IMG/VR virus record: IMGVR_UViG_3300007735_000794
Span: 1 to 64,000 of that record
Length of the DNA stretch: 64,000 nt
Direction: 5' to 3' (one strand)
DNA from: a virus
How positions within the stretch are numbered: the first letter of the stretch is position 1; every line of letters begins with the position of its first letter. Positions 317 to 22,076 of the stretch are shown here, piece after piece. The notes beneath the pieces were generated by a model, which saw only the letters and a program-made list of their open reading frames with translations, had not been told where the DNA came from and did not search any database. Position numbers and translations under genes: made by a program.

Positions 317-346
317 ACGTGCGTGACTTTAAACTTATTTTATAAT
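317..346 (+). promoter_or_regulatory. early-type promoter (GTGCGT-N16-TATAAT)
   Basis: acGTGCGT 319-324, TATAAT 341-346; same geometry recurs about 12 times in window. Confidence 0.75.
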
Positions 347-351
347 AAATA

Positions 352-600
352 ACATCTCCCATCGCCCGTTCGAATCCCACCGCGTCTTTATCAAAATCTG
401 CACGTTCTAATGCGTGCAGAGGCGGCAACGAAAGTTGCTTGGCAGTTGTGCAGCCACCATGTGCTTGTTGCGTTTGCTCAATAACGCGGACAAGACGACT
501 TTACAACTGTTAGGGATTGAGCACGGGTCTAAGTCTTGGTAAGATTGCAAGCTCGGGAGCGCACAGCAACCCAAAAAGACTTTGCTTGCAGCACCCAAAA
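352..600 (+). ncRNA. candidate structured ncRNA / long 5' leader
   Basis: Non-coding stretch after promoter with several stems (CTGCACG/CGTGCAG; GCAAC-GAAA-GTTGC; CTTGTTGCGTT/AACGCGGACAAG) and tRNA-like GTTCGAATCCC. Confidence 0.4.
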
Positions 601-622
601 TCATTCACGCAAGGAAGAAACA

Positions 623-907
623 ATGATGCCTACTGCTATTCAAATTATTCATATGTTTGCTGCGGCGTGCTATGTGATTGTTTGTGGCATTGCTTGCGCA
701 GTCGGGCATAGCCTTGACTACGCTGTGTCACGTGGTACGTATGAAGACAAGATGGGACGCAAATATCACATCAAGTCAATTGACGACGTGAATGACATCG
801 TGCAGTATGAAATTGAATTTCGAGCTGGTGGTGGCCCAATTCAGTTTGAAAATGCAACGTGCTCTCGCAAGCGATTCTTTCAAATGAACCTGGTGAAGCT
901 TGGGTAG
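623..907 (+). CDS. hypothetical protein with N-terminal hydrophobic segment
   Basis: ATG 623 after AAGGA; in frame with 536..907 ORF. Confidence 0.65.
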   Translation: MMPTAIQIIHMFAAACYVIVCGIACAVGHSLDYAVSRGTYEDKMGRKYHIKSIDDVNDIVQYEIEFRAGGGPIQFENATCSRKRFFQMNLVKLG

Positions 908-1241
908 AAGCAAGCTAACAGCACTCGAGTTGCTAACACCCTTTGTAGGACGTGTCGTAACGTTGAATGACCACGTATGGATTTACGACTCATTTGTTTG
1001 GTTGAACCCAGGGACGCTCGCGTTTGTTTTAGACGCGTTTGATTGGCAAAATGATGAATTTAATTTTAACAAATGCGTCAAAGCAAGAGCAAGTCATGCG
1101 TCGACAGGCTTGGACTTGAAACAGTATTCAGGACGCGTCAAGATATTCTATCAGCAGCTGAATGTCATTGCGTGGACGTGTGTTTTGATGGGAAGCGATG
1201 AATATCCCGACACATTGATTTCGATTGATGAGGAGCGATAA
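900..1241 (+). CDS. hypothetical protein
   Basis: Tiles with neighbours; VGRVVTL..W..LAFVLD resembles 6465 and 10233 products. Confidence 0.6.
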   Translation: MGRSKLTALELLTPFVGRVVTLNDHVWIYDSFVWLNPGTLAFVLDAFDWQNDEFNFNKCVKARASHASTGLDLKQYSGRVKIFYQQLNVIAWTCVLMGSDEYPDTLISIDEER

Positions 1242-1439
1242 ATGGCAAAATTCAAGTACACTCTCTTCCTTTTGCGTGATCATAACAAGCGAAAGCATAC
1301 ATTTGAAGTCACTGTTCCAGATGAATTTGCTGATTCTCAATCTGTTATTGATGAAGAAGCAATCAATACAATGCCGCAGTGGATTTCTGACGGCGATTGG
1401 GAAATCGAAGATTCGCAGTACAAGTGTGTAGAACAATGA
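1242..1439 (+). CDS. hypothetical protein
   Basis: GAGGAG SD, abuts previous stop. Confidence 0.7.
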   Translation: MAKFKYTLFLLRDHNKRKHTFEVTVPDEFADSQSVIDEEAINTMPQWISDGDWEIEDSQYKCVEQ

Positions 1440-1819
1440 AAAAGAAAGAACAGCAGAAACTCCTTGAATCAACGTTCGAAATTGCGCAAAAGCTCGGTTC
1501 AGAGTTTGAACAAGTGCTTATGAATACGCTGTTCACTGAGCACAATCCCGGATATAAACGCGGTCGTGCACTTACAGTTGCAGATGTGAAGAATCTCAAG
1601 GTGGGTGACATTGTCTGGTTGAGATACAAAAAATGGGATAGAAAGTGGCGTGTAGATGAAGCTGTTACAATTGTAGAAATCTATTCTCCCGGCGATCTAG
1701 AGACAGATGCATGCAGCTTTAGATGCACAAATTCAAATGATAATGAGAAAGCTGTTGATGAAAATCACGGCTATGCAGACCTTTCAGTCGCAGTCAAGAA
1801 AGACGACGTGTCAAAATGA
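1436..1819 (+). CDS. hypothetical protein, KOW/SH3-like (LKVGDIVWL)
   Basis: ATGA overlap; motif. Confidence 0.7.
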   Translation: MKKKEQQKLLESTFEIAQKLGSEFEQVLMNTLFTEHNPGYKRGRALTVADVKNLKVGDIVWLRYKKWDRKWRVDEAVTIVEIYSPGDLETDACSFRCTNSNDNEKAVDENHGYADLSVAVKKDDVSK

Positions 1820-2031
1820 AAGTGAAGCAGCTCAAAGCATTGCTCGCGAAGCTTGATGACGAAATGGAAGTCGTCGTCCAAGAATACAATGGGTGTCAAG
1901 ACATTATGCGATCTATCACAGACGTTGATGTTATCAAGCTCAACAGCTCACTGAAGGACGTCGTCGATCCAAATGTGATGAAACGACGCAGCGGCCAGTC
2001 AATCGCAAAGATCACAGCGCTCAAGTATTAA
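1816..2031 (+). CDS. small phage protein (MKVKQLKALL..MEV), paralog of 13848
   Basis: ATGA overlap; shared N-terminal pattern. Confidence 0.7.
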   Translation: MKVKQLKALLAKLDDEMEVVVQEYNGCQDIMRSITDVDVIKLNSSLKDVVDPNVMKRRSGQSIAKITALKY

Positions 2032-2038
2032 GGTCGAC

Positions 2039-2290
2039 GTGCTAAAAGACTCGCTTGTTCTTGTCACTATTTTGATAGCGTGTATAATCGTCATCATTTC
2101 AAGCATTCGATCGTTGATTGTTCATCACAAGACAATGAATGAATATCGACGACATTGCAAAGAGTATGATGAAAATTGCGATGAGTTAGATCGACGCCTT
2201 GCTAAGGGCGAAAAGAATGTGTCACCATACGATCCTGTCCCAATGCTCTATCCCTATTTCGCACATCGGCGGGGACAAAGAATTCCATGA
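2039..2290 (+). CDS. small membrane protein
   Basis: N-terminal TM helix. Confidence 0.65.
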   Translation: MLKDSLVLVTILIACIIVIISSIRSLIVHHKTMNEYRRHCKEYDENCDELDRRLAKGEKNVSPYDPVPMLYPYFAHRRGQRIP

Positions 2291-2300
2291 ATTAAATTGC

Positions 2301-2330
2301 ACGTGTTTGATAGCATTTATTGTGTATAAT
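2301..2330 (+). promoter_or_regulatory. early-type promoter (GTGTTT-N16-TATAAT)
   Basis: acGTGTTT 2303-2308, TATAAT 2325-2330. Confidence 0.7.
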
Positions 2331-2353
2331 ACAATTCAACATGCGAGGGCGTA

Positions 2354-3622
2354 ATGGCAAATCTTCTTGACGTTGTCCAACATGAGAAGCCAAAGGTGAT
2401 CGATCTTGTCCCATCAGACGTGGAAAGCGTCTGGAAAGCAAGCTCAGATGATCAAGATCATGCAAAGTGGCTTCGACAGCGAGTGCCAGCTTCTGGCGAA
2501 GCTGCTACGTGGGCAAACAAAGTCATCAGTGATGTCGACAAGAAAGTCGAAAATCTCTGCTGGTCAACATACGAAAAGGCAAACCAGCTGCCTGTTCCAA
2601 TGGGAACGCGAGCGCCGGCGCTTCTGAAGAAGCTGATGGCGACTCCGAGTGCTGAACTCGGCGATATCCTCGACGTCACGACGCGTCTTGGCTTTGTCAT
2701 CCTTCCATATGAATACATGTCATCTGACGCGTGGAAGAATGAAAATTCTGATGTGCGAGCTGCAATTGCAGAATTCGGTAGCCTTGCAGGTCAAGAAGAA
2801 AAGAAAGACGCATACAATCGTGTTACGCATACTGCAGTGCCTCGTCGCATGGACGTGTATGTCGTTTGCCCGCCGATCTACTACTCACTCGATAAGCATA
2901 TTGAGTCTGAAAATCCCAATATGCAGCTCTTCGCAGGCAAGAATGAGCAAGCATTCATGGCGTTGGGGCTTACGCTTCCCACACTTCGTGCGATGAATTC
3001 GCAAATCAAGACGCTTGAAGAGAATCAAGCACAGATGTCTCGTGATTACAATGCAGTTCGTTCTGTCGTAGAAGCAAATACTCGAAACATGAATGCTCTT
3101 CGCAACCAAGTTGCAGACTTGGAAAAGAACGTGACAGCTCAGCTTTCGAGAATGCAAGAAATGCTCGATGCTGAGCTGAAGAACACAACTGCTCGTGCTG
3201 TCCAGCTCGCGTCTTCGCTCGGTGCAGAGGGCGCTGAAATTCTGAGATTGCTTGGCAACAAGTCAGACTTGAAGTCTGCAAAGGAAGCACTCGCTGCACT
3301 CGAAGCTGTCAAATTCAGAATCGAGGAACCGCTGATGTTTGCAATGAAGCCCGGCACTTCACTTCGTGATCGAAATGCAGTCACGACGCTGGGACCGTGC
3401 TGGGGACCTGATTTTGCAGATATTATTGCAACTGCTGTCGAGTTGAAGATAGACAAGGAGCAGCGCAAAGCTGCAGAGGGAATGCTCTCTGTCTGGAGAG
3501 GCTCGGGATCTTCGTATCAAAGCAGCAATGCCTACAATGACCAGCGCTACGTACCAGAACTCTCATGGGACACTTCGCCTTACCGCAGTTCTGTATCATA
3601 CGCGAAGCCGAGAAAGTATTAG
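2354..3622 (+). CDS. hypothetical coiled-coil protein (422 aa)
   Basis: GAGG SD; long heptad-rich central region. Confidence 0.85.
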   Translation: MANLLDVVQHEKPKVIDLVPSDVESVWKASSDDQDHAKWLRQRVPASGEAATWANKVISDVDKKVENLCWSTYEKANQLPVPMGTRAPALLKKLMATPSAELGDILDVTTRLGFVILPYEYMSSDAWKNENSDVRAAIAEFGSLAGQEEKKDAYNRVTHTAVPRRMDVYVVCPPIYYSLDKHIESENPNMQLFAGKNEQAFMALGLTLPTLRAMNSQIKTLEENQAQMSRDYNAVRSVVEANTRNMNALRNQVADLEKNVTAQLSRMQEMLDAELKNTTARAVQLASSLGAEGAEILRLLGNKSDLKSAKEALAALEAVKFRIEEPLMFAMKPGTSLRDRNAVTTLGPCWGPDFADIIATAVELKIDKEQRKAAEGMLSVWRGSGSSYQSSNAYNDQRYVPELSWDTSPYRSSVSYAKPRKY

Positions 3623-3636
3623 AATGTTGTAAAAAT

Positions 3637-3673
3637 CTCGCAGCGATGTGTTATTGATTCACATCGCTGCGAG
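3637..3673. repeat. perfect 14-bp inverted repeat (hairpin, possible terminator)
   Basis: CTCGCAGCGATGTG-9nt-CACATCGCTGCGAG just after a stop codon. Confidence 0.85.
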
Positions 3674-3698
3674 CACATCGTTATGAATGTGTTATAAT
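3669..3698 (+). promoter_or_regulatory. early-type promoter (GAGCAC-N16-TATAAT)
   Basis: gcGAGCAC 3671-3676, TATAAT 3693-3698. Confidence 0.65.
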
Positions 3699-3717
3699 TC
3701 GAGTAGAAGGTAAACAC

Positions 3718-3921
3718 ATGCTCGAAGACAACTACAGGCGTGTCATTGCAACGCTTCCATTCGAAGTGAAGATTCAAGACTTCGATGAATGTTCACTCAG
3801 CGTTAGCATCTCTGACGGCCGCCGGCGCTGCGTTTGGTATTGTTACAATGACAGCGGCTTTGATGCGTTGATCAAATGGCTTCGTTTTGAATTGAAAATT
3901 ATCTCATACAACGTCGACTGA
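3718..3921 (+). CDS. hypothetical protein
   Basis: AAGG SD, follows promoter. Confidence 0.65.
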   Translation: MLEDNYRRVIATLPFEVKIQDFDECSLSVSISDGRRRCVWYCYNDSGFDALIKWLRFELKIISYNVD

Positions 3922-3929
3922 GGTTTCAT

Positions 3930-4244
3930 ATGACCAAGCAGATTTACATGTATGTGGGCCGCGGCCGCAACACTGAAAACTTCCCGTGGCGTCCTCTTCG
4001 TTTGAGTGACGAATTCGAAGAAGACATTGCTCGCGGGTTCATTGGTATGTCATTCGAAGACGGTTGCTACGACGCAAATGAAGTCTGCGATGCAGTTGCA
4101 GTTCTCATCGTCGAATTGTTTTCAGAAATGGGAAATTGCTGGAAGCCGAACGTCGGCATCTTCAAGTGTGGTCATTGGTATGATCACAAACTCGGCACGT
4201 ACAAGTACATCAGCTCGAGTGAGCAATTCAGCTTCAAATGGTGA
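3930..4244 (+). CDS. hypothetical protein
   Basis: GAGG SD; tiling. Confidence 0.7.
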   Translation: MTKQIYMYVGRGRNTENFPWRPLRLSDEFEEDIARGFIGMSFEDGCYDANEVCDAVAVLIVELFSEMGNCWKPNVGIFKCGHWYDHKLGTYKYISSSEQFSFKW

Positions 4245-4248
4245 TGAC

Positions 4249-4635
4249 GTGATCAAGTTCATTGACGTGTACAATGACAAGTTTGAACCGAAAACGTGGA
4301 ATGAACCGGCGATGATGACGTCTGCAATGATGGGCGATGCTGCAATTCGTGTGTGGCTCATTCTACGAATCAGAAATGACATCGACAGAAAGTGGCATGG
4401 ACCTGCGCTGAGTGAGATGAATGCCAACGTAAAGATGATTGCCTTTGCAAAAGAAGCATTTCCCATGTGTCATGGCAAGAAGATCGCAGACAATTTTGAA
4501 GCATATATCTGGCATTTGTACAATTTCAATCCGACGAAAATGAATGAAGTGATGTGGAAGTTTTACGCATTTCTTTTGAAAGAGAAAGTGGATTCATACG
4601 TCGTTTGTCCGCTTCTAAAGAAAAAGCTTTCATGA
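4249..4635 (+). CDS. hypothetical protein
   Basis: GTG 4249 in frame of 4006..4635; tiling. Confidence 0.6.
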   Translation: MIKFIDVYNDKFEPKTWNEPAMMTSAMMGDAAIRVWLILRIRNDIDRKWHGPALSEMNANVKMIAFAKEAFPMCHGKKIADNFEAYIWHLYNFNPTKMNEVMWKFYAFLLKEKVDSYVVCPLLKKKLS

Positions 4636-4820
4636 AACTCTATGATTTAGTGCAAATCAAAACTAACTGTACGCTATATCCGTCTGCATTTGGAATCGTC
4701 ATTGCTCTTTATACAGAGGATGCTCGTCTTTACATTAAAGGTAGAAGCTTGTTGTTCTATCATTACGAGTTTGATGTTGTTCAATCAAGCTTTGATGAGA
4801 CACGCCATGAATCGAGATGA
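4632..4820 (+). CDS. small KOW/SH3-like protein
   Basis: MKLYDLVQI; ATGA overlap. Confidence 0.6.
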   Translation: MKLYDLVQIKTNCTLYPSAFGIVIALYTEDARLYIKGRSLLFYHYEFDVVQSSFDETRHESR

Positions 4821-5034: not shown

Positions 5035-5040
5035 CAAAAA

Positions 5041-5241: not shown

Positions 5242-5244
5242 CAA

Positions 5245-5274
5245 GCGAGCGCCCATATTCGAATTGTTTATAAT
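5245..5274 (+). promoter_or_regulatory. early-type promoter (GAGCGC-N16-TATAAT)
   Basis: gcGAGCGC 5247-5252, TATAAT 5269-5274. Confidence 0.7.
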
Positions 5275-5295: not shown

Positions 5296-5790
5296 GTGAG
5301 CAAATACGAAAAAGTCTCGCATCCGAAGTTCAAGGTTGGACGATACAAAGCAGACCCAGCAACGGGAAAGCGTGTTATCGACGATGTTCAAAGCTTTGAC
5401 TTCGAGCAGCGTGCTGACGGATCGCCGACTTCTGCAACTGTTCGTGCAATGACTTCGATCTTCCAATCCATCATGAAGATGGGTGGGTGTGTTGAAGTGA
5501 TTCTCGAAGACGGTGGTCTCAGGACGCGAATCAACAAAGCAGATGCTCTCGATCGTTGGCGTGACGAGATGATTTTTCGTCTCGACGCTGATCGCCGCGG
5601 TGCTCCAGAAACGTTTGGTGACAAGGCTGCAAAGATGCGATTGGCTGCAATGAAAGACATCGCAGATGTTGAGAAGCCTTGGCAAAAGGGACTTCCCTGT
5701 GAGCAGCTCCTGACTGACAGGACGTTCGAAATCATCTCGAAGCTTGAAAACGAATTCATCTGGTGGGAAAACTGCCACGGAGCGGAATAA
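5296..5790 (+). CDS. hypothetical protein
   Basis: GAGG SD after promoter; 164 aa. Confidence 0.8.
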   Translation: MSKYEKVSHPKFKVGRYKADPATGKRVIDDVQSFDFEQRADGSPTSATVRAMTSIFQSIMKMGGCVEVILEDGGLRTRINKADALDRWRDEMIFRLDADRRGAPETFGDKAAKMRLAAMKDIADVEKPWQKGLPCEQLLTDRTFEIISKLENEFIWWENCHGAE

Positions 5791-7475: not shown

Positions 7476-7505
7476 ACGTGTGTAGCCAATAAAATGTGTT
7501 AAAAT
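7476..7505 (+). promoter_or_regulatory. early-type promoter (GTGTGT-N16-TAAAAT)
   Basis: acGTGTGT 7478-7483, TAAAAT 7500-7505. Confidence 0.65.
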
Positions 7506-7525: not shown

Positions 7526-8065
7526 ATGCAGAAGCTCTTTATCAATTCATTCTTTCACTACCAGATTATCGAACGAAATGGCAAAAACGTCTTGATTCAA
7601 TTCGGTGATTTGTGCCCAAAAATGGGACACAGAAAAGAATATGATGTGAGTGAAGGTGTAGAATGTGGCGCGTGGAGCAAAGACGAGTTTGTCTCGTTTA
7701 ACTATGACCTTTCAAATGCAACGCATCTTTCAGAAGAAGAGCGTGCAGATAATCACATTGCCGAAGCGAATCCTGGCCCGACGAGGGGCATTGAATGCGG
7801 TGACGATTTTCGATATCATATTCAAGACGCCGATCCGTTGTTTCATAAATTCAACAAGCAAATGAAAGACAACAAAAAGCGCGCAGCAGCTCTTTTTAAT
7901 CAACTGGGCAAAGATGTCAAATCGATTGTTTGGTTCATCAAAGTAGATAATGACGCAGAATTTCTTGATGAAGTGATTCGAATCGAAAATCATCGAACGT
8001 TGAAGCCCAGAAAAACTTTGATCGCTGCATGCGAAAAACAATTGACCAAGCTGGAGCAAAAATGA
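7526..8065 (+). CDS. hypothetical protein
   Basis: AAGG SD after promoter; 179 aa. Confidence 0.8.
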   Translation: MQKLFINSFFHYQIIERNGKNVLIQFGDLCPKMGHRKEYDVSEGVECGAWSKDEFVSFNYDLSNATHLSEEERADNHIAEANPGPTRGIECGDDFRYHIQDADPLFHKFNKQMKDNKKRAAALFNQLGKDVKSIVWFIKVDNDAEFLDEVIRIENHRTLKPRKTLIAACEKQLTKLEQK

Positions 8066-8508
8066 TGTCATTCCTCAATTCAGCCGTTCAGCAAGCAACA
8101 ATCGCTCACGAAGGTCAGCTCGACAAAGGTGGGCACGCATATATCTTGCATCCACTTCGAATCATGTATCGTCTTCGTACGCCTGATGAAGAGTTGATGT
8201 CGATCGCTGTTCTCCACGATTCGATCGAAGACTCTGCTGGGAAAGTGACGATCGAATCTCTCTCGTCGCTCGGCGCACCTTATCGCGTTCTCAAGGCATT
8301 GGAGTTGCTGACTCACGATCCTGCTGTCGACTATATGGACTACATCAAGAAGATTCAAAGTAATCCCGATGCTGTTCGTGTCAAGCTCGAGGATCTTCGC
8401 GACAACAGCGACATCACGAGGCTCAAGGGACTTCGTCAAAAGGATTTCGACAGGCTTGCACGATATTCGATTGCGTATCGTCATCTTATTCAATACGGTG
8501 AGAAGTAA
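8062..8508 (+). CDS. stand-alone HD-domain hydrolase, RelA/SpoT (small alarmone hydrolase / Mesh1)-like
   Basis: AHEGQLDKGGHAYILHP, AVLHDSIED, VKLEDLRDN. Confidence 0.85.
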   Translation: MMSFLNSAVQQATIAHEGQLDKGGHAYILHPLRIMYRLRTPDEELMSIAVLHDSIEDSAGKVTIESLSSLGAPYRVLKALELLTHDPAVDYMDYIKKIQSNPDAVRVKLEDLRDNSDITRLKGLRQKDFDRLARYSIAYRHLIQYGEK

Positions 8509-9329
8509 TGGAAAATAGCGGTTTAGACTTTGACCTTAAACATCACACGATTCTTTGGACAATTGGCGGCAGTAGATGTTATGGAATACATACAAAAGAA
8601 TCTGATGTTGATACAAAAGGAATTTGTATTCCGCCTGCACGCTATTATCATGGCGCATTGAATACATTTGAACAAACAGATTCTCAGCAGCACCTCGAGT
8701 GTTTTCGTGATTTGTTGAATGAAGAAGAAACAAATGTTGCAGCAGGCTCAAAGCTTGAAGGCGTTGTTTATGAAGTAAGAAAGTTCATCAAGCTCGCGAC
8801 AGAATGCAATCCAAACATTCTTGATGTGCTATTCTGTCGCGACGAAGACGTCAGACTGATGACACCTTTGGGAAAATTGCTACGAAACAATAGGCAGCTT
8901 TTTGTCTCTGCAAGAGCGAAGCATTCGTTTTCGGGATACGCAATCGCACAAATGCGTCGTCTTGAAAATGACAAAAGCAATACGTTCAAAACAAGCAGAG
9001 GAAAAAATCGTCAAGATCTAACTGAAAAATACGGATACGACACAAAGTATGCTGCGCATCTTGTTAGATTGATGCGAATGTCACATGAAATAATGGACAG
9101 CGGTGCTGTGAATGTTTATCGTGGCAACATTGACGCCAATGAATTGATTCAAATTCGTCAAGGCGCATGGAAATACGAAGATGTAATTTCTTGGGCAAAA
9201 GCGCAAGATCAAAAGTTGACATTGAATTACAACAACGGGAAATACGCAATTCCGCATTCACCTGATAGAAACGCAATCAATAGTCTTTGTTGCGAAATCG
9301 TCGAACGTCATTTGGCGGGTGAAAAATGA
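8508..9329 (+). CDS. Pol-beta-superfamily nucleotidyltransferase (YcgL/RlaP-like)
   Basis: GSRCYG..SDVDTKG; NPNILDVLF; YDTKYAAHLVRL. Confidence 0.85.
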   Translation: MENSGLDFDLKHHTILWTIGGSRCYGIHTKESDVDTKGICIPPARYYHGALNTFEQTDSQQHLECFRDLLNEEETNVAAGSKLEGVVYEVRKFIKLATECNPNILDVLFCRDEDVRLMTPLGKLLRNNRQLFVSARAKHSFSGYAIAQMRRLENDKSNTFKTSRGKNRQDLTEKYGYDTKYAAHLVRLMRMSHEIMDSGAVNVYRGNIDANELIQIRQGAWKYEDVISWAKAQDQKLTLNYNNGKYAIPHSPDRNAINSLCCEIVERHLAGEK

Positions 9330-9613
9330 CTGACGACGATTTCGAAGAATACAGACAAAGATTTGTTGATTCTGACACGACTGGACACATTCGTTTTCAA
9401 AATTGTGATATTGTTGTGCCATGTAGATATGAGTGGGTGAGAAATGTCATGGGCGAAGCAATTCACAAAGTTGATCGTAAAGAAGTCGCGATTGTTATAG
9501 ATGCTAACGTCATCAGTATCTCCGTGGACCGCCTCGCCATACCTAGCATAAAAGTCATGAATAAATCCCAAGTGGGATACATATACTTCTATTCGCTTGT
9601 GAAAATATGTTAA
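9326..9613 (+). CDS. hypothetical protein
   Basis: ATGA overlap. Confidence 0.6.
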   Translation: MTDDDFEEYRQRFVDSDTTGHIRFQNCDIVVPCRYEWVRNVMGEAIHKVDRKEVAIVIDANVISISVDRLAIPSIKVMNKSQVGYIYFYSLVKIC

Positions 9614-9813
9614 ATGTAAATGATTGTGTCATCTTGCAGGGAAGGGCAGACAAATATCCATTTTGTGCAATCATCACAAAAATTTCATGTGACGAGATTG
9701 TATACAACATTTTCATGCCTGGAAAAATATTTGCAGTCAGATCGTCAGCAAGATCAAAGAATGAATTTGATGCACTTCTTGTTTGTAATCTGACACAAAA
9801 TAACCCAGACTGA
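9607..9813 (+). CDS. small KOW/SH3-like protein
   Basis: LNVNDCVIL..AIITKI. Confidence 0.55.
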   Translation: MLNVNDCVILQGRADKYPFCAIITKISCDEIVYNIFMPGKIFAVRSSARSKNEFDALLVCNLTQNNPD

Positions 9814-9823
9814 GGAACAATAC

Positions 9824-10036
9824 ATGTTTGACAGAATGATGGGCGCTCTCGTTGATCATATTGTTACAATTATTGTAATTGGATGCATTGTGTGCGTAGT
9901 TACATTTTTGTATGAAATAAACGAAGTTCAGAAGAAGATTGAAGAACGACAAGCTGCTTGCGCAAAGAAATGTTACCCATACGTTTGGGCAGAGACAGCT
10001 GACGATCAGCGAGTATGCCTTTGTGGAAATGACTGA
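9824..10036 (+). CDS. small membrane protein with Cys-rich C-terminus
   Basis: GAGG SD; TM helix; CAKKC..CLC. Confidence 0.65.
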   Translation: MFDRMMGALVDHIVTIIVIGCIVCVVTFLYEINEVQKKIEERQAACAKKCYPYVWAETADDQRVCLCGND

Positions 10037-10236
10037 TGGAAGTGGGTGAATTAAGAATTGCAACATCAGGACTTCTATCTAGCGATGTCGGCGACGTTTT
10101 CATAATTGTAAATATTTACAGGACGCCCAATCAAGAAGGCGGAGTAGAATCAGTCGATGTTTATATGGGTGACACTGGCGTTTCACAATTTTGGTTAAAA
10201 AGTTACATTGAACAACATTCTCATGCATTAACATGA
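10036..10236 (+). CDS. small KOW/SH3-like protein
   Basis: MEVGELRI..VGDVFII. Confidence 0.6.
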   Translation: MEVGELRIATSGLLSSDVGDVFIIVNIYRTPNQEGGVESVDVYMGDTGVSQFWLKSYIEQHSHALT

Positions 10237-10667
10237 ACGAAGGATGTCTTGTCAAGGTAATAGACAATGCAGCTTGCCGCGGTTTTGCATTGATCGTAGG
10301 TCGAACATATACAAAGAATCGAAGAACAGTCTTCCAAGATGGTAAAAGTTATACAATACATCTTTCGCTATTTACAGAGCGTTTGATGGCTAAATCATTC
10401 TTTAATAAGCTCAAACAGCGAAAAGGCGACGTTATTTGCATTACAAACAAAATATGGTGGTTTGGCGGTGGCGGGTATGACAATGAAATGTCTCGTTTTG
10501 CGCTTTTGATTGATGTTGTAGAATACGATAAGTATGAAAATGCATCACTTGCCTCAGAAGCTGAAACATGGTCAACAGGATATGAAAGTAATGTCATCGC
10601 ATATTTGCTTATTAACAACAAATTAAAACACGTCAGAATCACACAAGCAGATGTTGTATTTATATGA
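10233..10667 (+). CDS. hypothetical protein (two KOW-like segments)
   Basis: MNEGCLVKV and RKGDVICI. Confidence 0.6.
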   Translation: MNEGCLVKVIDNAACRGFALIVGRTYTKNRRTVFQDGKSYTIHLSLFTERLMAKSFFNKLKQRKGDVICITNKIWWFGGGGYDNEMSRFALLIDVVEYDKYENASLASEAETWSTGYESNVIAYLLINNKLKHVRITQADVVFI

Positions 10668-10933
10668 AAATTGGAACGCTTGTTAGAGTACTGAGCACGG
10701 CGAAATGGGTGCCGCACAATGTTTTTGCAGGTGATTATGCGATTCTTGTAAGCATTGACTGGGATAAAACAACACATCCTTACGGAATAAAAGATCGCGA
10801 CGGAAATGTAATGACTGGCCGCGGGAGATTTTTATTCTTGAATAAGTTTGAAGCTGATGACTTTGTGCATCAAAAAGCAAACATAAAGATGATGTTATAT
10901 GAATCGTTTGATGTGATTAGTGAAGCTCGGTGA
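10664..10933 (+). CDS. small KOW/SH3-like protein
   Basis: MKIGTLVRV. Confidence 0.65.
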   Translation: MKIGTLVRVLSTAKWVPHNVFAGDYAILVSIDWDKTTHPYGIKDRDGNVMTGRGRFLFLNKFEADDFVHQKANIKMMLYESFDVISEAR

Positions 10934-11156
10934 TCTCATTCGAAAGAAACATAGTCACGCTTTCGTTGATGGAAAGTGGTGCGATGTAATTGCATTTTAT
11001 TGCGGTACTATTCCGAAAGGAACAAAGCATGATGATCACGGCTTTGTATACACGACATATTTAATTGATATCTACGTCGTCTATTTAGGCAAGAAAGATA
11101 CGAGTAGATATTTCGCAATATCAGATGAATGGGAAGTTTATCAGGAGTCTAATTAA
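10920..11156 (+). CDS. small KOW/SH3-like protein
   Basis: MKLGDLIRK. Confidence 0.65.
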   Translation: MKLGDLIRKKHSHAFVDGKWCDVIAFYCGTIPKGTKHDDHGFVYTTYLIDIYVVYLGKKDTSRYFAISDEWEVYQESN

Positions 11157-11378
11157 ATGCGAGATGATCGAGACATATGTGTGGGCGATCTTTGCAGATT
11201 TAGACAAACTGGCAATATTGTACTCATTATCAATGAGTTTAAAGCTGAAAATCCTCGATGTGATGAAATAATTGATTATTTTGACATCTATTACACAGCA
11301 CAGTGCATGTTTTCTTCTTATTGGGAAAAAGAACACATTTCGCGTGCGCTCGACATCATAGTATCAGCACGTGTGTGA
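11157..11378 (+). CDS. small KOW/SH3-like protein
   Basis: AGGAG SD; ICVGDLCRF. Confidence 0.65.
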   Translation: MRDDRDICVGDLCRFRQTGNIVLIINEFKAENPRCDEIIDYFDIYYTAQCMFSSYWEKEHISRALDIIVSARV

Positions 11379-11398
11379 TTGCATGCATATATTATAAT
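11369..11398 (+). promoter_or_regulatory. early-type promoter (GTGTGT-N16-TATAAT)
   Basis: acGTGTGT 11371-11376, TATAAT 11393-11398. Confidence 0.7.
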
Positions 11399-11424: not shown

Positions 11425-11793
11425 ATGGGTGCGAATCTTCCGAAGATCCTCCGCGTTTCTCGCAAAGGACTCATGTCCGGTGCGAAGATGATCGTTCGTG
11501 GTCTCCAGAATACTGCGTCTCGTCGCTATGACGAAGCTGTAATCGATGAGCAGGTCGTCGACATGGAAATCGAAGAAATTGAGCAGATTGTCGAGACTCG
11601 CCGCCTCGATGAGATGTACTGCGAGCGGTCGTGGCGCCGCAAGCACAAAGACAATTCGCTGGGCGAGTTTTACGAAGACGATGATTATGATGACTTCGTA
11701 GCACAGCGTGAGTGGTGTGATGAATTCGAAGAGACGATCGATTATAAGCGCGCCGACGAAGCTGAAAATGAAACGTGGATCAATTGGGTGTAG
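11425..11793 (+). CDS. hypothetical protein, basic N-terminus and very acidic C-terminus
   Basis: AAGGA SD after promoter. Confidence 0.8.
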   Translation: MGANLPKILRVSRKGLMSGAKMIVRGLQNTASRRYDEAVIDEQVVDMEIEEIEQIVETRRLDEMYCERSWRRKHKDNSLGEFYEDDDYDDFVAQREWCDEFEETIDYKRADEAENETWINWV

Positions 11794-13790: not shown

Positions 13791-13820
13791 GCGTGCGCAA
13801 ATTAATTCGCGTTGTATAAT
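13791..13820 (+). promoter_or_regulatory. early-type promoter (GTGCGC-N16-TATAAT)
   Basis: gcGTGCGC 13793-13798, TATAAT 13815-13820. Confidence 0.75.
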
Positions 13821-13847: not shown

Positions 13848-14054
13848 ATGACTGTCAAAGACCTCATCGAAAAGCTGAAGACGTTTCCGCCCGACTATGA
13901 AGTCATCACGCTTGATGCTGATGGGCGTGAAGAGTCGGGTGTTGTGAATGCAGTCTTAGGCAAGATTCTTGAAATCGAAGTGGGTGAAGACTCCTTCGTT
14001 CAGGATGAGCCGAGTGATGAAGAAATGGGCTGCGTCGCAATCTACACTTTCTAG
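13848..14054 (+). CDS. small phage protein (MTVKDLIEKL..PPDYEV)
   Basis: AAGG SD; paralogous pattern with 1816. Confidence 0.75.
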   Translation: MTVKDLIEKLKTFPPDYEVITLDADGREESGVVNAVLGKILEIEVGEDSFVQDEPSDEEMGCVAIYTF

Positions 14055-15994: not shown

Positions 15995-16023
15995 ACGTGC
16001 GCGAACTTCGCGCTGTGTATAAT
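15995..16023 (+). promoter_or_regulatory. early-type promoter (GTGCGC-N15-TATAAT)
   Basis: acGTGCGC 15997-16002, TATAAT 16018-16023. Confidence 0.65.
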
Positions 16024-16079: not shown

Positions 16080-16256
16080 ATGATCGTCGTCACTTACCGA
16101 AATCGGAAAGAACGTGTAAAGACGATTCGTCGTTGCGACAACATGTCTTCACAAACATGGCTTTGGTGTCATCTCGAACTCGAGAGTGGTGAAGAAGTCG
16201 TGGGCTTTTTCAACGTTGATGAAATCGTGCAGCACAACAATGAAATCAATCGCTGA
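16080..16256 (+). CDS. hypothetical protein
   Basis: After promoter; start uncertain. Confidence 0.55.
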   Translation: MIVVTYRNRKERVKTIRRCDNMSSQTWLWCHLELESGEEVVGFFNVDEIVQHNNEINR

Positions 16257-16263
16257 GGTTCAT

Positions 16264-16884
16264 ATGTCCACGATCTCCGGAACGACTCATGACATCATCT
16301 ACACCTGCTACTCACAGGATGAAGTGGTGATTCGTCAGCAGCTGAAGCATCTGCTGGTCATTCGAGCAGCGAAGCATCATCACTTGCAGCTCTTCAAACT
16401 CCCAGGGACCAAAGAAGAAATCACCGCCCTGGGATTCAGCAGTTACAATCAACCCGATACCTGGGTCATGGTGGCCGACAAGGGTCTACGCAGCTACACG
16501 ACCTCCGTCGATCACATCTGCCACGCAGCCGCTGACTGGATGGCAGGTTGGCTCTTCTGCGAGTCGATGCACATCACGCAGGCAAAGGAACTTCGGCAGA
16601 AAGAAATGACTGCAAAACTTGCGGCAGCAACCGCAAAAGCATCGAAGATCGTTCGTGCAAAGTTGCTAGACAAGACACCCTACATGCTGATTCAGCGTGT
16701 TCATCAAACGAGCCCAACCACCACCCACGTCTCCACCTTCGTCACCAACGACACATATTACATCGAAGAACACGCAGTGAAGACGTACGGCTACAAGCTT
16801 CTAGCTTGCGCGAAGACCGAAGAGCAGCTCAACGAGCTTCTCGAATTCACTCGTGAGCCACAACAAATCATCGCTGTCACCTAG
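16264..16884 (+). CDS. hypothetical protein (C-ending codon bias)
   Basis: GAGG SD; about 206 aa. Confidence 0.8.
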   Translation: MSTISGTTHDIIYTCYSQDEVVIRQQLKHLLVIRAAKHHHLQLFKLPGTKEEITALGFSSYNQPDTWVMVADKGLRSYTTSVDHICHAAADWMAGWLFCESMHITQAKELRQKEMTAKLAAATAKASKIVRAKLLDKTPYMLIQRVHQTSPTTTHVSTFVTNDTYYIEEHAVKTYGYKLLACAKTEEQLNELLEFTREPQQIIAVT

Positions 16885-17740: not shown

Positions 17741-18001
17741 ATGAACGATCAATTTGAGCCGGGCGACTTGTTGATTATGCGTTATGATGATACACCCACG
17801 AGCAGCATACAGTATCCCGGTGTGATCTTGAGTACAGGCGAGCAGTGTGGTCTCCGTAGCTCTAGATGGGTAACTTTTTTCTATCATCTGCCCGACGGAG
17901 TCGTGAGTGCGTGTGACAGCAAAAAAATTGTCACACATACCCAGACTTGGGTCTACGAGTACATGATTTCGCATCATAAAGCAGCATTTGACTCGCAGTA
18001 G
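17741..18001 (+). CDS. small KOW/SH3-like protein
   Basis: FEPGDLLIM..GVIL. Confidence 0.6.
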   Translation: MNDQFEPGDLLIMRYDDTPTSSIQYPGVILSTGEQCGLRSSRWVTFFYHLPDGVVSACDSKKIVTHTQTWVYEYMISHHKAAFDSQ

Positions 18002-18241
18002 CGCAAAAAGTATATGATCTCAGCTCAAAGCTCACTTTCATCACATTTTTGAACATTTTTTAAACAGAAGTGAGCTTTGTGGGCAGAAGATAAAAAATAT
18101 TTGACTCCCAGCAGCGCGCAGAGTTAATCATTTTTGATGAAGTTAACTTTCGTCACACTTTTTGAACTTTTTGAAACGGTTTTGAGGTTTGATGTGAAAG
18201 CGTTAAAAATGATTGACTCAGAGCAGCGCGCAAAGTATATA
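17986..18241 (+). repeat. degenerate ~113-bp tandem repeat, each unit with TTGACT-N17-TATAT-like promoter
   Basis: TTGACTC..AG.AGCGC..A.AG at 17988, 18101, 18213; ACTTTC.TCACA.TTTTTGAAC repeated. Confidence 0.75.
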
Positions 18242-18433
18242 AGTCCTCACACAATTGAACCTGGGCAGCTGTGGAAGATGATATATGATGTAGAGATTTA
18301 CTATCACATTCTCACAGTTGACGAACGAATTGTTACAATTGTCAGATGGTGCTCGCAGAGAATGACTGTCGAGTGGCGCTATCGTTATGACGTTGATCAA
18401 ATGCGCGGGACGCTCATTTCAGGGAACACATAA
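18209..18433 (+). CDS. small 'GQLW' KOW-like protein
   Basis: IEPGQLWK..YYHILTV; start uncertain. Confidence 0.55.
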   Translation: MIDSEQRAKYISPHTIEPGQLWKMIYDVEIYYHILTVDERIVTIVRWCSQRMTVEWRYRYDVDQMRGTLISGNT

Positions 18434-18651
18434 TGACAAGCACAAAGATGAAAATTGAGAAGGGTCAACTGTGGCGCATCAACGCACAAACAAAAAGCGG
18501 GACAATTCTCTATCTGATTTTAGACATCGTTAACAGTAATACAGTCACAATTGCGCGATACGGATCGTATTCAATGGGACCGGGCGCATTTTGTATTGTG
18601 ACACGAAGTGTTTATGAAATTCGTGATCTTGCGACAGAGATAATCGTATGA
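18433..18651 (+). CDS. small 'GQLW' KOW-like protein
   Basis: IEKGQLWRI..LYLILDI. Confidence 0.65.
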   Translation: MTSTKMKIEKGQLWRINAQTKSGTILYLILDIVNSNTVTIARYGSYSMGPGAFCIVTRSVYEIRDLATEIIV

Positions 18652-18860
18652 ATTCGCAACGACGCTATCAGCAGAATCAGATGTGGCGCATTCGGTCACC
18701 GCACATCTATTACGTCATTGCACAAATCAAACACGACAGCGCAGTCATTCTACGTTTTGATTGTCAACCGTATCGCAGTAGGAAGGGTGACGGTGCTGCA
18801 GTCACGCAACACGAGCAGTTCTACAGCGTTCTTGATTCTATTTGCACAGAAGAACTATGA
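18648..18860 (+). CDS. small 'GQLW'-type protein
   Basis: QQNQMWRI..YYVIAQI. Confidence 0.6.
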   Translation: MNSQRRYQQNQMWRIRSPHIYYVIAQIKHDSAVILRFDCQPYRSRKGDGAAVTQHEQFYSVLDSICTEEL

Positions 18861-19051
18861 AACCGCTCAAACCCATCGTAGCGGGTCAGTTGTTAATCAA
18901 TTCGACAGAGCACAGAATCAAATACATTGTCATCGTTGTGTGGCAACATTCAGCATGTGTCATGCGATATGATTGGCGAGGCTTTACGATTGAACACTAC
19001 AGCTTAGATTTGCTCTCGTCAATCGCATTCAATATCGAAGAAGACACATGA
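18857..19051 (+). CDS. small 'GQL'-type protein
   Basis: IVAGQLLI; ATGA overlap. Confidence 0.6.
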   Translation: MKPLKPIVAGQLLINSTEHRIKYIVIVVWQHSACVMRYDWRGFTIEHYSLDLLSSIAFNIEEDT

Positions 19052-19266
19052 AAATGGCTGTCGCATGCGGACAAATTTGGAGATTGAAAGTAGAATTTAG
19101 AATTTTCTACGACGCCGCGCGACTATTTCATGTTTTGTCATTGAATGACGCCTTCGCCCAGGGCAATTTTATCGCTGATGTTGGGTCTGCGCCAATGCGT
19201 TGTAATTTGCCTTGCGATCGTATTCTTGAAATATACGACCTCATTTCAGACGCTGTCAGAGAATGA
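19048..19266 (+). CDS. small 'GQIW'-type protein
   Basis: VACGQIWRL. Confidence 0.6.
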   Translation: MKMAVACGQIWRLKVEFRIFYDAARLFHVLSLNDAFAQGNFIADVGSAPMRCNLPCDRILEIYDLISDAVRE

Positions 19267-19267
19267 C

Positions 19268-19561
19268 ATGTCAAATCTAGCAGAAGCACAGCAAACTGAA
19301 TTCTCGGCGGGTGATCTCTATCTGATTAAATTTTGGCCTGGGGGCGCGACATGGACAGGATTCGTGCTGACGAATGAATACGTTGATCCAACGCTCAGCG
19401 CCGGCGGCAAGCTTGTCATGTTGAACTTGTATGCCGCAGACAAAATACCGTATAATGGCTACAAAATCTATGCGAATGAATTACGCCGTTGCGAATCGAT
19501 CAAAAAATTGTGTAGCATTGATGATGATGAACATGAATATACACAGAATGAATCTGCATAA
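19268..19561 (+). CDS. small KOW/SH3-like protein
   Basis: FSAGDLYLI. Confidence 0.6.
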   Translation: MSNLAEAQQTEFSAGDLYLIKFWPGGATWTGFVLTNEYVDPTLSAGGKLVMLNLYAADKIPYNGYKIYANELRRCESIKKLCSIDDDEHEYTQNESA

Positions 19562-19598
19562 CTTATGTGAAACTTTGACAACAAATCCACAGTAACAT

Positions 19599-19871
19599 AT
19601 GGCAATCATGCACGATTCAACAGAACTTCAACAGATAAAATCTGCTGACATACAATGCGGGATGATGTTGCAAATTCGTTTTGGACCGGGACCCAACAAC
19701 GGATTCAACACAATTGCATATGTCAATGCTATCAACACGAAAATGTGTGTGTTTGTATTCACATTATGGTTTACTGACAACAGCGACATCAGCATTTGGC
19801 CCAATTACACAATTCCAATCAGCTCGACTGGGAACATGCAATTCAGATACATTTGCAGCGACCCTGCGTGA
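19599..19871 (+). CDS. small KOW/SH3-like protein
   Basis: IQCGMMLQI. Confidence 0.6.
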   Translation: MAIMHDSTELQQIKSADIQCGMMLQIRFGPGPNNGFNTIAYVNAINTKMCVFVFTLWFTDNSDISIWPNYTIPISSTGNMQFRYICSDPA

Positions 19872-19920
19872 GAAGCGCTTGAAGCCCACTTGACGCCCGA
19901 ACTTCACACCCAACAACATC

Positions 19921-19950
19921 ACGTGCGTGAAATGCGCGGGATCATATAAT
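19921..19950 (+). promoter_or_regulatory. early-type promoter (GTGCGT-N16-TATAAT)
   Basis: acGTGCGT 19923-19928, TATAAT 19945-19950. Confidence 0.75.
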
Positions 19951-19986
19951 GTCGCCACAGCAGCACAATTCGTGTTGCGCAAGAGG

Positions 19987-20232
19987 ATGACTTCGATGAA
20001 GTGCACGAAGTGCCACGTTGAGATGCAGTTGGGTCTCGCAATGATGCCCGTCTTGGGCAATTCGAATGCAAAGCCGCAGCTTGGGCAATGCATGTGGCCC
20101 GTTGGTGCAGCACTGTCGAACAACTGCCTCAAGTGCCCGCAGTGTGGTCACACTGTCGCATGGGCAGGGGAAGCGCAAGTGATGGTGGGCGATCCTCACT
20201 TGACGGTCAACGTGGGCGTTGCACAGAACTGA
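19987..20232 (+). CDS. zinc-ribbon protein
   Basis: MKCTKCHVEM...KCPQCGH; GAGG SD. Confidence 0.7.
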   Translation: MTSMKCTKCHVEMQLGLAMMPVLGNSNAKPQLGQCMWPVGAALSNNCLKCPQCGHTVAWAGEAQVMVGDPHLTVNVGVAQN

Positions 20233-20685
20233 AGATCTGCACGACAGCAAAGGGCGTGGGAGCTTAGAGATAAGTTGCCGCGCTTTTTGTTCACTTGAGC
20301 CTCGGGCTTCTCACACAGCACTGCACACTCTGCTCGTTGCAGAAAAATGCGACTTCCTAACAACTTCTACATCAGACGCTCGCGTGTCGCAGTGAAGACT
20401 GATGTCTCAACGTTTCAAGACACGCGGACGGGAAGCTCACGCGCAATTGAACATCGCGTCGCGCACGCGACAGACTCGACTTCACAGCTCTGCGTTGCCC
20501 TGCCCACACGTCAGTTCGACGACGTCAGAGCGCTGACGCAGCAGCACGCACGTCAGAGCGCGCAGATGTTCAAATCCGTTCTGCTGTGCGCAAGCTGCTG
20601 AAGGGTCACTTGAGACCCAACACTCACCTTGCGCACAGCAGAACGGGGGAGGCTTTCGCCTCCCCCGCCCATTCACCCGCCGTCC

Positions 20686-21249
20686 CTAGCTACGGCGACC
20701 CTTCTTCTTCTCGACCTGCACGGGTTCCTCGGCCACGGGCGCCTCGGGCTCTTCCACCACCGTCTCGGCGTGCACCTCGACGGGTTCCTCCACGGTCTCC
20801 GCGGGCACGTCTTCCCCGGTGGCGGGCTGCACCTCGGCGACCTCGCCCGTGGCCTCCTCGGCGGTGTTGGTCACCTCCTCGGTGGCACCCTCGGGCGGCG
20901 CCGCCGCCTCCACCACCGGCTCCTCCACCTGCACGACGGGGGCGATCGGCTGACCGTTGACGAGGATGACCGGCTTGTCCGTGTTGGTGGACCCACCGTG
21001 GCTCTTCGTCTCGGGGCACGGGTAGCCGGCCTCGCGGAGCGCCTTCTTGCACGCCCCACCGATCGCCACCTTTTCCCCCTGGCCGAACTGGGCACGCGTG
21101 TCATCGTGGACCTTGAGCAGCCAACGCCCGCCCCAGTTGAAGGGGGAAGCCGTGAAGGGCTTGCCGTCGCACGTCCCGGAGGCGGACTGCTTGTTGTTCT
21201 TGGCGTCGGTCACGTCGAGGGCGGTGATCTTGATATCGAATCGGGACAT
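20686..21249 (-). CDS. hypothetical protein with long Glu/Val/Pro-rich acidic tail; very high GC3
   Basis: GGAGAG SD before ATG 21249; codons nearly all G/C-ending; own promoter. Confidence 0.85.
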   Translation of the reverse strand: MSRFDIKITALDVTDAKNNKQSASGTCDGKPFTASPFNWGGRWLLKVHDDTRAQFGQGEKVAIGGACKKALREAGYPCPETKSHGGSTNTDKPVILVNGQPIAPVVQVEEPVVEAAAPPEGATEEVTNTAEEATGEVAEVQPATGEDVPAETVEEPVEVHAETVVEEPEAPVAEEPVQVEKKKGRRS

Positions 21250-21385
21250 GATCTCTCCCACTTGTTCGGCACTTGTTGCCGATTGTTGCTAGACACCCGG
21301 GAGGGTGGGAATAAGGGTGGCGGGGATTTGACCCGCCCGGGGAGGATTCCCCTCTTAATCCATTATTCCTCTGGATTATACCCAG

Positions 21386-21415
21386 ATTATATCTTTGAGT
21401 TTTTGGTTCACACGT
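21386..21415 (-). promoter_or_regulatory. early-type promoter (GTGTGA-N16-TATAAT) for the 21249 gene
   Basis: + strand ATTATA 21386-21391, TCACAC 21408-21413. Confidence 0.7.
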
Positions 21416-21481
21416 CGATGGAGATGGGAAGTTTTGTGCTGCGAAAATGCGCTGACGCTCGCCGCGCTTGAAGCTCACATG

Positions 21482-21544
21482 AAGCACTTGACACCCACTT
21501 CACGCTGACGCTGAGGAGAAAGCACTTGACAGACACTTCACGCT
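21482..21544 (+). repeat. 25-bp imperfect direct repeat containing TTGACA
   Basis: AAGCACTTGACAcccACTTCACGCT / AAGCACTTGACAgacACTTCACGCT, 38-bp period. Confidence 0.75.
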
Positions 21545-21923
21545 CCTCATGAACTTGACGTTCCACAAATGTCCGCGGCAGACACACGTCGCCTCGCTCA
21601 TTGTCGGGCTGAAGTGTGAAGTGCTGCACACGCTGCGCGTTGCGACTCCGAGCGCGGCGAGGTGCGGGCTGATGCAGCTTGACATGAAGCGCACGCTTGA
21701 GACGCTGTCGTTTGACTGTGAAGCAGTGTAGGGGCACGTTGCGCTGCTCAGCGTCTGAGATGCAGTGCTGCTCGATAGACACGTCAGACCTCCCATTGCG
21801 CAGCTGTGCTGCGTCTATGCTGCTACGCACGCTGATGTCGCAGTCGTGCGTCAAACAGCGCACAGGGCACACGAACTGAATCGTGAACCCGTGCACAGTG
21901 ACAGCTCCGCTGCTGCCAAATAG

Positions 21924-21953
21924 ATTATAACATGCAGTTTCTGTTGCGCACGC
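21924..21953 (-). promoter_or_regulatory. early-type promoter (GTGCGC-N16-TATAAT), leftward
   Basis: + strand ATTATA 21924-21929, GCGCAC 21946-21951. Confidence 0.7.
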
Positions 21954-22047
21954 TGCCACAACCGGTGCGCAGCGCAGAGAACAATCGAAGCGTCACGCAG
22001 ATGATGCGTGTCTGCTGCTGCAGCTGACGTAGCCGCCGCCCTGTCCC

Positions 22048-22076
22048 ATTATAACAACGCTGCACACTTCACACGC
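22048..22076 (-). promoter_or_regulatory. early-type promoter (GTGTGA-N15-TATAAT), leftward
   Basis: + strand ATTATA 22048-22053, TCACAC 22069-22074. Confidence 0.55.

Follow-up and report, generated by a model that had tools for sequence, protein, structure and literature searches.

The left arm of a 64,000-nt stretch of viral DNA, hereafter the window, carries twelve copies of a promoter-like element that pairs a familiar -10 hexamer with an unfamiliar box at the -35 position. The window comprises bases 1–64,000 of a single 98,068-bp IMG/VR record (IMGVR_UViG_3300007735_000794, labelled G000 here), which CheckV estimates to be about 28% complete. Composition divides this record: guanine-plus-cytosine (GC) content is 40–47% in 1–20 kb, about 60% in 20–22 kb and 31–37% further right, and the left arm as a whole (1–22.1 kb) is 43% GC. 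The arm and its candidate promoters, numbered in order, are as follows.

1–22190, no strand: promoter arm, small ORFan genes in about 12 transcription units, reaching the contig end.
318–346, plus strand: promoter 1, CGTGCG-N17-TATAAT, followed by a 190-nt leader with no open reading frame (ORF) before 536.
2302–2330, plus strand: promoter 2, CGTGTT-N17-TATAAT, with GAGGG and the ATG at 2354 (a 422-aa coiled-coil ORFan) 24 nt on.
3670–3698, plus strand: promoter 3, CGAGCA-N17-TATAAT, with a strong 14-bp hairpin (z = -7.4) whose 3' arm lies over the box; ATG at 3718.
5246–5274, plus strand: promoter 4, CGAGCG-N17-TATAAT, with a GTG start at 5296 downstream.
7477–7505, plus strand: promoter 5, CGTGTG-N17-TAAAAT with a TGT extended -10, heading the 7526–11378 operon.
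11370–11398, plus strand: promoter 6, CGTGTG-N17-TATAAT, with an ATG at 11425 downstream.
13792–13820, plus strand: promoter 7, CGTGCG-N17-TATAAT, with an ATG at 13848 downstream.
15996–16023, plus strand: promoter 8, CGTGCG-N16-TATAAT, its spacer 1 nt shorter.
19922–19950, plus strand: promoter 9, CGTGCG-N17-TATAAT, with an ATG at 19996 downstream (78-aa protein).
21386–21414, minus strand: promoter 10, CGTGTG-N17-TATAAT, serving a 60% GC gene at 21249–20686.
21924–21952, minus strand: promoter 11, CGTGCG-N17-TATAAT with a TGT extended -10; no convincing ORF downstream.
22048–22075, minus strand: promoter 12, CGTGTG-N16-TATAAT with a TGT extended -10, just within the arm boundary.

The twelve sites share a box, a spacing and a placement. 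The original prediction had read them from the letters of the window, in its left third, and every one is present where it had been placed. It had given all twelve the hexamer TATAAT; eleven have it, and the hexamer at 7500 is TAAAAT. Each box is preceded directly by AC or GC, as had also been described. With their -10 hexamers in register, the sites show CGWGYG at -35 to -30, the place of the -35 hexamer, with a spacer of 17 nt at 10 of 12 sites and 16 nt at two (15996, and 22075 on the minus strand). All 12 are intergenic and oriented toward the next gene, most of them 20–50 nt ahead of a ribosome-binding site and start codon.

This arrangement far exceeds chance. A gapped motif search against shuffled sequence, the check proposed along with the prediction, found CGWGYD-N17-TAWAAT 10 times in the 64-kb window, where 0.36 matches are expected; 100 dinucleotide-preserving shuffles gave 2 or fewer each. 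The rest of the 98-kb record, beyond 22.1 kb, holds no good match to the class. TTGACA occurs at none of the 12 sites, and the class has no TTGACA-like -35 hexamer; only the C at -31 of TTGACA is kept in the box. Sites resembling TTGACA-N16–18-TATAAT stand at shuffle level in 1–20 kb (45 versus 42.9 expected), and TATAAT by itself is not enriched in the window (63 versus 55). The signal therefore lies in the box, its spacing and its placement. A TGn extended -10 is present at only about 4 of the 12 sites. Of the canonical sigma-70-like sites in the arm, the best (TTGTCA-N16-TATAAT, 11/12, at 2061–2088) lies within the ORF 2039–2290, 240 nt upstream of promoter 2.

The class recurs in related phages, where it is more regular still. 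Using a late sigma-like gene (L005:3822-4544) as a handle for relatives, we retrieved 509 IMG/VR loci; a pattern search of whole records matched three (G004, G006 and G007), which were taken in full. G007 carries 26 same-strand copies at canonical spacing in 1–20 kb, where GC is 59–64% against 35–40% elsewhere, and G006 carries 26 copies on one strand in 87–104 kb, where GC is 57–66%. The class is enriched in both at z > 60, and the spacer is 17 nt at 52 of their 53 sites. Their consensus is C at -37, Y at -36, CGTGC at -35 to -31 in 26/26 copies each and G at -30 in 23–24/26, followed by R at -29, T at -15, G at -14, R at -13 and TA(G/C/T)AAT; the TGn extended -10 is present at 25/26 sites in each phage. 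A conserved G-C pair resembling a start site follows 7–8 nt downstream of the -10, and then come AAGGAGG and ATG. G004 (about 50% GC) has about 10 copies of CGTG(C/T)(A/G), of which one stands immediately ahead of the gene for an RpoD-like sigma and another ahead of a DNA ligase gene. A further 14 larger records and 42 small fragments with the late sigma-like gene have no array, and none of them demonstrably covers an arm. These relatives encode a gp23-type major capsid protein, and the lineage is therefore placed in the T4-type "group 2" jumbo phages, as delineated by Iyer et al. 2021 (PMC7824862).

Freshwater metagenomes extend the class further. The arms of G006 and G007 each contain two paralogs of the high-GC gene of promoter 10, and an alignment of this family led to 79 freshwater metagenome loci (303 kb in total). 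Same-strand copies number 162 in these loci; the opposite strand has 1, and a reversed-pattern control gives 5. Among 138 distinct copies, the box has C at -37 in 132, C at -36 in 115, T at -33 in 129, C at -31 in 120 and A or G at -30 in 134; TG stands at -15/-14 in 103, and the -10 is TAGAAT in 78, TACAAT in 46 and TATAAT in 14. The box comes in several flavours (CGTGCA, CGTGCG, CGAGCG, CGTGTG and CGTGAR), the CGWGYG of G000 among them. Across more than 200 promoters of the class, none has TTGACA. The class is thus a conserved, lineage-wide element and not peculiar to this contig. Our literature search found no published description of it.

The arm appears to belong to the genome in which it was found. 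The junction between arm and body is the following feature.

22080–22380, plus strand: arm/body junction, runs of G and C, then CTTCCCGGGAA at 22186, 22269 and 22345; a fourth copy at 23025.

An artefact would make the class either a chance motif or one half of a chimera of two unrelated phages joined at 22.2 kb. GC does fall abruptly there, from about 60% to about 33%, and no Logan contig spans 22214–22270. Chance is ruled out by the shuffles, however, and Logan contigs from four runs lie on both sides of the junction at similar depth, their only interruption being a 32-bp repeat (CTTCCCGGGAATTTTCAACGACTTCTGACAT) with copies to the left and right of the change in composition. The order of promoter arm, G/C runs, TTTCCCGGGAAAAT copies and first leader-bearing cargo gene recurs in G007, an independent assembly, and the layout of arm, GC-run, TTCCCGGGAA and cargo array is repeated in both G007 and G006. 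Because depth is similar on the two sides in three runs, the break falls at a repeat and G007 has the same order, we take the junction at 22.2 kb as real and regard an artefact as very improbable.

The junction has a sequence signature of its own. A palindrome-containing box, CTTCCCGGGAA(A/T)TTT, occurs in four copies (22186–22196, 22269–22279, 22345–22355 and 23025–23035) at the junction and ahead of the first cargo genes, and two 32-bp copies of it are identical. Its G007 counterpart (about 20.9–21.1 kb, L095) has TTTCCCGGGAAAAT twice, after about 230 nt of G/C runs. The box may serve as a regulator site, terminus or origin.

Four phage records and 79 metagenome loci conserve the box, its exact spacing and its placement, and this strongly supports what the original prediction had proposed from the window: a real promoter class, as predicted from sequence, that combines a sigma-70-type -10 with a new specificity at the -35 position. 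Each promoter serves one small ORFan or short operon, inside the variable arm of a gp23-type phage. The genes served in G004 (sigma, ligase and small ORFs) suggest that the class is pre-replicative. What reads the box is the harder question, and a gene in the AT-rich body of the window offers a candidate.

48478–48699, minus strand: candidate reader, 73 aa, a Cys-rich cap followed by sigma-70 region 4.2 only.

Mini-proteins of this build, 73–84 aa long and consisting of a Cys-rich cap and region 4.2 only, are encoded in G000, G006, G007, G003, G040, G060 and G061. PF04545 matches those of G000, G006 and G007 at 34–36 bits (G000 at 34.4 bits, over model positions 23–48 only). A PDB profile search aligns the mini-protein with region 4 chains of RpoD and SigA, setting GVTRMRICQ against GVTRERIRQ of RpoD; in the G000 protein the helix is SRMRVCQ where RpoD has TRERIRQ. 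In E. coli numbering the helix differs from RpoD by E585M and R588C, with R584, R586 and Q589 kept. In known complexes R584 contacts the C:G pair at -31 and E585 contacts -33/-34, and genetics tie R588 to -33 (PMC2613000; PMC12262734); redesign of R584, E585, R586, R588 and Q589 creates orthogonal specificities for the -35 element (PMC12262734). In the box, the C at -31 is retained and the bases at -34 and -33 depart from TTGACA. This match between predicted helix changes and box changes is suggestive.

The mini-protein gene would itself be expressed from a different kind of promoter. In G000 it is preceded by GGTAAA-N16-TATTAT, which is another class, and (G/A)GTAAA-N16-TAnnTT stands before it in three phages. 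The AT-rich body also has a second promoter-like class, nTGTAA-N17-TAnnnT, ahead of minus-strand or DNA-metabolism genes including the sigma-4.2 gene.

26247, 32270, 33698, 43211 and 48744 of the window, minus strand: promoter-like nTGTAA-N17-TAnnnT sites.
64245, 93776 and 96236 of the genome, plus strand: promoter-like nTGTAA-N17-TAnnnT sites.

TGTAA is enriched at the same register in G060 (9–10 copies against about 1.6 expected), and this class keeps the canonical T at -34 and G at -33. Since the mini-protein gene has a different promoter type and the nTGTAA-N17 class keeps those canonical bases, a cascade is possible in which a host-like class drives the mini-protein and the mini-protein in turn drives the CGTG class. 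Merging the CGTG and TGTAAA classes, an idea prompted by CGTGTAAA in G004, was rejected: in the G004 copies CGTG never changes whereas the four bases after it do, and the CG is missing from the body class. G060 (273 kb, 82% complete) encodes the mini-protein and has no CGTG array, and its contig begins inside the cargo-gene array, where the arm would start. We considered G060 as evidence against a link between mini-protein and promoter class and rejected it as such because its left end falls within that array.

Some relatives encode a second set of sigma-like parts.

G004 108452–109479 (L110:8452-9479) and G060 206827–207820 (L175:6827-7820): truncated sigma gene and helix-turn-helix (HTH) gene.

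The RpoD-like sigma of G004 and G060 is of group 1 type, has regions 1.2, 2, 3 and 4.1, and ends after LRLRFGI with no region 4.2. Within 20 nt after it follows a conserved gene for a 90-aa HTH protein (GYREIAE...TARN...). That protein has no Pfam match, and neither Pfam nor BLAST gives a link to the mini-protein; from its sequence it looks like a second kind of detached region 4.2. The promoter class might then be the cognate, self-activating promoter of this two-gene sigma (N-terminal piece plus small HTH protein) instead of that of the mini-protein. In G004 the promoter CGTGCG-N15-TGGTATAAT lies directly ahead of the unit, as in self-regulated alternative sigma operons, and the group-1-type regions 1.2, 2 and 3 of the N-terminal piece fit a TAnAAT -10. 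However, the same unit in G060 has no CGTG box in the 150 nt upstream (searched by eye) and no array in its 273 kb, the unit was not found in G000, G006 or G007, each 28–32% complete, and the residue of the N-terminal piece aligned with E458, the reader of the TG motif, is unconserved. We consider this explanation improbable.

Recognition by an unmodified host holoenzyme would need no phage factor at all. Here the sites would be ordinary early promoters: either the host sigma prefers CGTGYR, or the (extended) -10 suffices and contacts with the box are tolerated. The arm does resemble the early hyperplastic region of T4-type phages, with one promoter per small gene (PMC2839356). The G004 promoter drives the phage's own sigma gene and so must be active ahead of any such sigma, nearly all copies in relatives have TGn, and the higher GC of the arm and its strong AAGGAGG sites could reflect host adaptation. 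Against this stand the absence of TTGACA from all of the more than 200 promoters, a conservation at 8 positions stricter than tolerated contacts would give, and the scarcity of TGn in G000, where a -35-type contact is probably needed. To our knowledge, moreover, the region 4.2 helix TRERIRQ is nearly invariant in the primary sigmas of well-studied phyla, and their -35 consensus is TTGACA-like.

Bacterial genomes also speak against such a host. Among cellular sigmas, those closest to the phage RpoD-like sigma come mostly from Verrucomicrobiota and Nitrospirota, in a retrieval skewed by exact peptide words. In 16 genomes from such bacteria and 301 genomes of the phylum with the closest sigma homologues, the motif does not rise above control level and has at most 3 copies per genome. 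WhiB, sought as a clue to the host, was not found. An unusual host sigma, one of two explanations first offered for the box, thus finds no support in about 320 genomes (Verrucomicrobiota, Nitrospirota and others), and the class is specific to the phage lineage as far as tested. We judge recognition by the host holoenzyme to be rather unlikely.

The other explanation first offered was a sigma appropriation comparable to that by MotA and AsiA of T4. This analogy fails in its particulars: no homologue was found, and the box lies at -35, not -30. MotA_activ and AsiA (PF09114, PF09010) have no match in G000, G004, G006 or G007, nor has PF09010 in G060, in records 28–82% complete and with a silent positive control. 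By analogy, a phage product may still redirect -35 recognition according to the same logic. More broadly, the box could be the site of another DNA-binding protein overlapping -35, an activator of the MotA or lambda cII type, possibly delivered in the capsid together with the neighboring cargo proteins, or a phage repressor that silences the arm promoters jointly, with the promoter itself relying on its extended -10. The box reaches -37 (CC) and -29, beyond the hexamer, many copies form the near-palindrome CCCGTGCGGG (CACGTG in G000), and cargo genes adjoin the arm, the first of them with a visible leader; extended -10 promoters need no -35 contact (PMC2613000). A fixed 17-nt distance and a single orientation nevertheless suit sigma region 4 more than they do a dimeric operator, fewer than half of the copies show the palindromic extension, and the records searched yielded no candidate protein. 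We rate this explanation as unlikely, a little below recognition by the host holoenzyme.

We tentatively favor a reading in which these are pre-late arm promoters whose box is read by a phage region-4-type module, most likely the mini-protein at 48478–48699. With both small HTH proteins counted, a phage-encoded module of this type is the best candidate reader, on which we come close to an evenly divided judgment. The sites would act as promoters of a hyperplastic arm of small ORFans, one per gene or short operon, in the manner of promoter early stem-loop (PeSL) cassettes. The -10 (TAnAAT, usually with TGn in relatives) would be recognized by a group-1-type sigma on the host core RNA polymerase, through its regions 2 and 3, and the box, CC-CGTG-Y-R, by the phage module and not by a canonical host region 4. 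The mini-protein would either take the place of region 4 in the host sigma or supply what is missing from the RpoD-like sigma that relatives encode without region 4.2. The rigid 17-nt distance from box to -10 is that of a region 4/region 2 pair. Remodelling of sigma by a stand-alone phage region 4.2 protein with changed base-reading residues, alongside a relatives' RpoD-like sigma that lacks region 4.2, is plausible on these predicted sequences. The fullest version, an orthogonal system in which a zinc-capped region 4.2 protein (E585M, R588C) replaces the host -35 reader and redirects polymerase to CCGTGYR-N17-TAnAAT, is a more doubtful proposition.

Several observations weigh against this reading. 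We infer transcription start at the sites, its timing and the binder of the box, and no RNA run is on record among those listed as containing the stretch. A reader made by the phage would arrive too late for an immediate-early arm. A CGTG promoter precedes the sigma operon of G004, so the class must have some activity, even if weak, in the absence of that sigma; the near-universal TGn could allow such weak firing before the phage sigma appears. By the same token, TGn at 25 of 26 sites in G006 and G007 could free those promoters from any -35 contact. The second small HTH gene, after the truncated sigma in G004 and G060, may encode the true partner, and the RpoD-like N-terminal piece was not found in the 98-kb G000 fragment. 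The match of residues to bases is argued by analogy from E. coli and Thermus structures, and variant boxes and the mini-protein do not occur on the same contig.

The arm has further features beyond its promoters. Between promoter 1 and the first ORF, positions 347–535 include a tRNA T-arm-like GTTCGAATCC and are negative with ARAGORN and Rfam; this segment may be a leader or a small RNA. Rfam and tRNA scans of the whole window found nothing. Folding z-scores are at or below -2 at 3 of 13 scanned G000 sites and 5 of 27 G007 sites, and the fold is strong only at 3670. Megablast of both window halves against 50,697 phage records gave no match, and the 422-aa protein behind promoter 2 has no relatives among viral contigs. 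The 78-aa protein behind promoter 9 has two CxxC pairs, with sub-threshold zinc-ribbon Pfam matches only. Contigs of runs X1 and X3 part from the window exactly at the end of the ORF 16186–16884 (window 16881–16884), which indicates strain-level swapping of neighboring arm segments; the 287-nt gap after that ORF has no CGTG promoter.

Composition sets the arm apart throughout the lineage. Arm GC lies 10–25 points above the rest of the genome in G000 (1–22 kb), G007 (1–20 kb) and G006 (87–104 kb), and in all three the arm extends as far as the contig end. A host-like composition suited to early expression, avoidance of AT-binding silencers, recent foreign origin and assembly-breaking microdiversity are all possibilities. 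About 1.4 kb of the 60% GC island in G000 has no convincing ORF, yet three promoters lie there. On its plus strand the island repeats CACTTGAC(A/G)-N4-7-ACTTCAC at 19879–19900, 20186–20200, 20608–20630, 21485–21503 and 21523–21541; two copies are in exact register against 0.02 expected, and the remaining ones, spotted by eye, vary in spacing. The protein encoded by the high-GC gene of promoter 10 has only two database relatives, both near-identical. Some paralogs in its family (L103:19351-19800(-), L094:7566-8003(+)) end in a SAP/Rho-N-like motif, LTVPQLKARAKDRGLKGYSDLNK, which suggests nucleic-acid binding; the G000 copy has an acidic tail rich in E, V and P in its place.

CCGTGYR-N17-TAnAAT is a precise signature of one transcription class in widespread uncultured lake phages. 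It allows ORFan arms to be annotated and a regulatory programme to be read from metagenomes. If a detached region 4.2 does read the box, a natural -35 specificity would reside on a separate, small and exchangeable subunit. Host RNA polymerase would then be redirected in a third way, the other two being MotA/AsiA appropriation and complete phage sigma factors, and synthetic circuits would gain a ready-made orthogonal pair of sigma-4 and -35 element.

The class shares its logic with known systems and differs from each in its parts. T4 middle promoters keep the sigma-70 -10 and replace -35 recognition through MotA and AsiA, at a MotA box (TGCTTtA) centered at -30. The promoters described here likewise keep a sigma-70-type -10 and have a phage-specific box in place of the canonical -35, but that box, CCGTGYR, spans -37 to -29 at the canonical 17-nt spacing, and the candidate reader is sigma region 4.2 itself. 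Two-subunit sigmas are also known: in B. subtilis SigO-RsoA, RsoA supplies region-2-like functions, and in T4 gp55 works with gp33, which does not read DNA. As in these pairs, recognition would be split over two polypeptides with one at the place of the beta-flap and region 4; unlike in them, the detached piece would be the -35-reading helix-turn-helix itself.

The closest parallel in layout is the PeSL cassettes of phages RB49 and phi1, whose promoters follow the sigma-70 consensus of E. coli, TTGACA included (Arbiol et al. 2010, PMC2839356). Both systems place dozens of copies of one rigid promoter just upstream of small ORFans in a hyperplastic region of a T4-type phage, and both have a stem-loop over the promoter in some copies, here at 3670 (PMC2839356). 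They differ in that CGTGYR replaces the TTGACA of PeSL at -35, strong stem-loops accompany only a minority of copies here, and the GC of the arm is far above that of the rest of the genome.

Parallels for the candidate reader come from jumbo phages and from engineering. A one-HTH sigma-4-like protein, together with an RpoD-like sigma in relatives, is what Iyer et al. 2021 (PMC7824862) describe for group 2 jumbo phages. The available portion of that survey assigns no promoter to these proteins; we offer a candidate cognate promoter class and find that the RpoD-like sigma stops before region 4.2. Engineered sigma-70 region 4 variants (PMC12262734) are similar in that the phage protein differs from RpoD at two of the five residues used for reprogramming. 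Those variants were built in full-length sigma-70, whereas the phage module is natural, free-standing and predicted from sequence.

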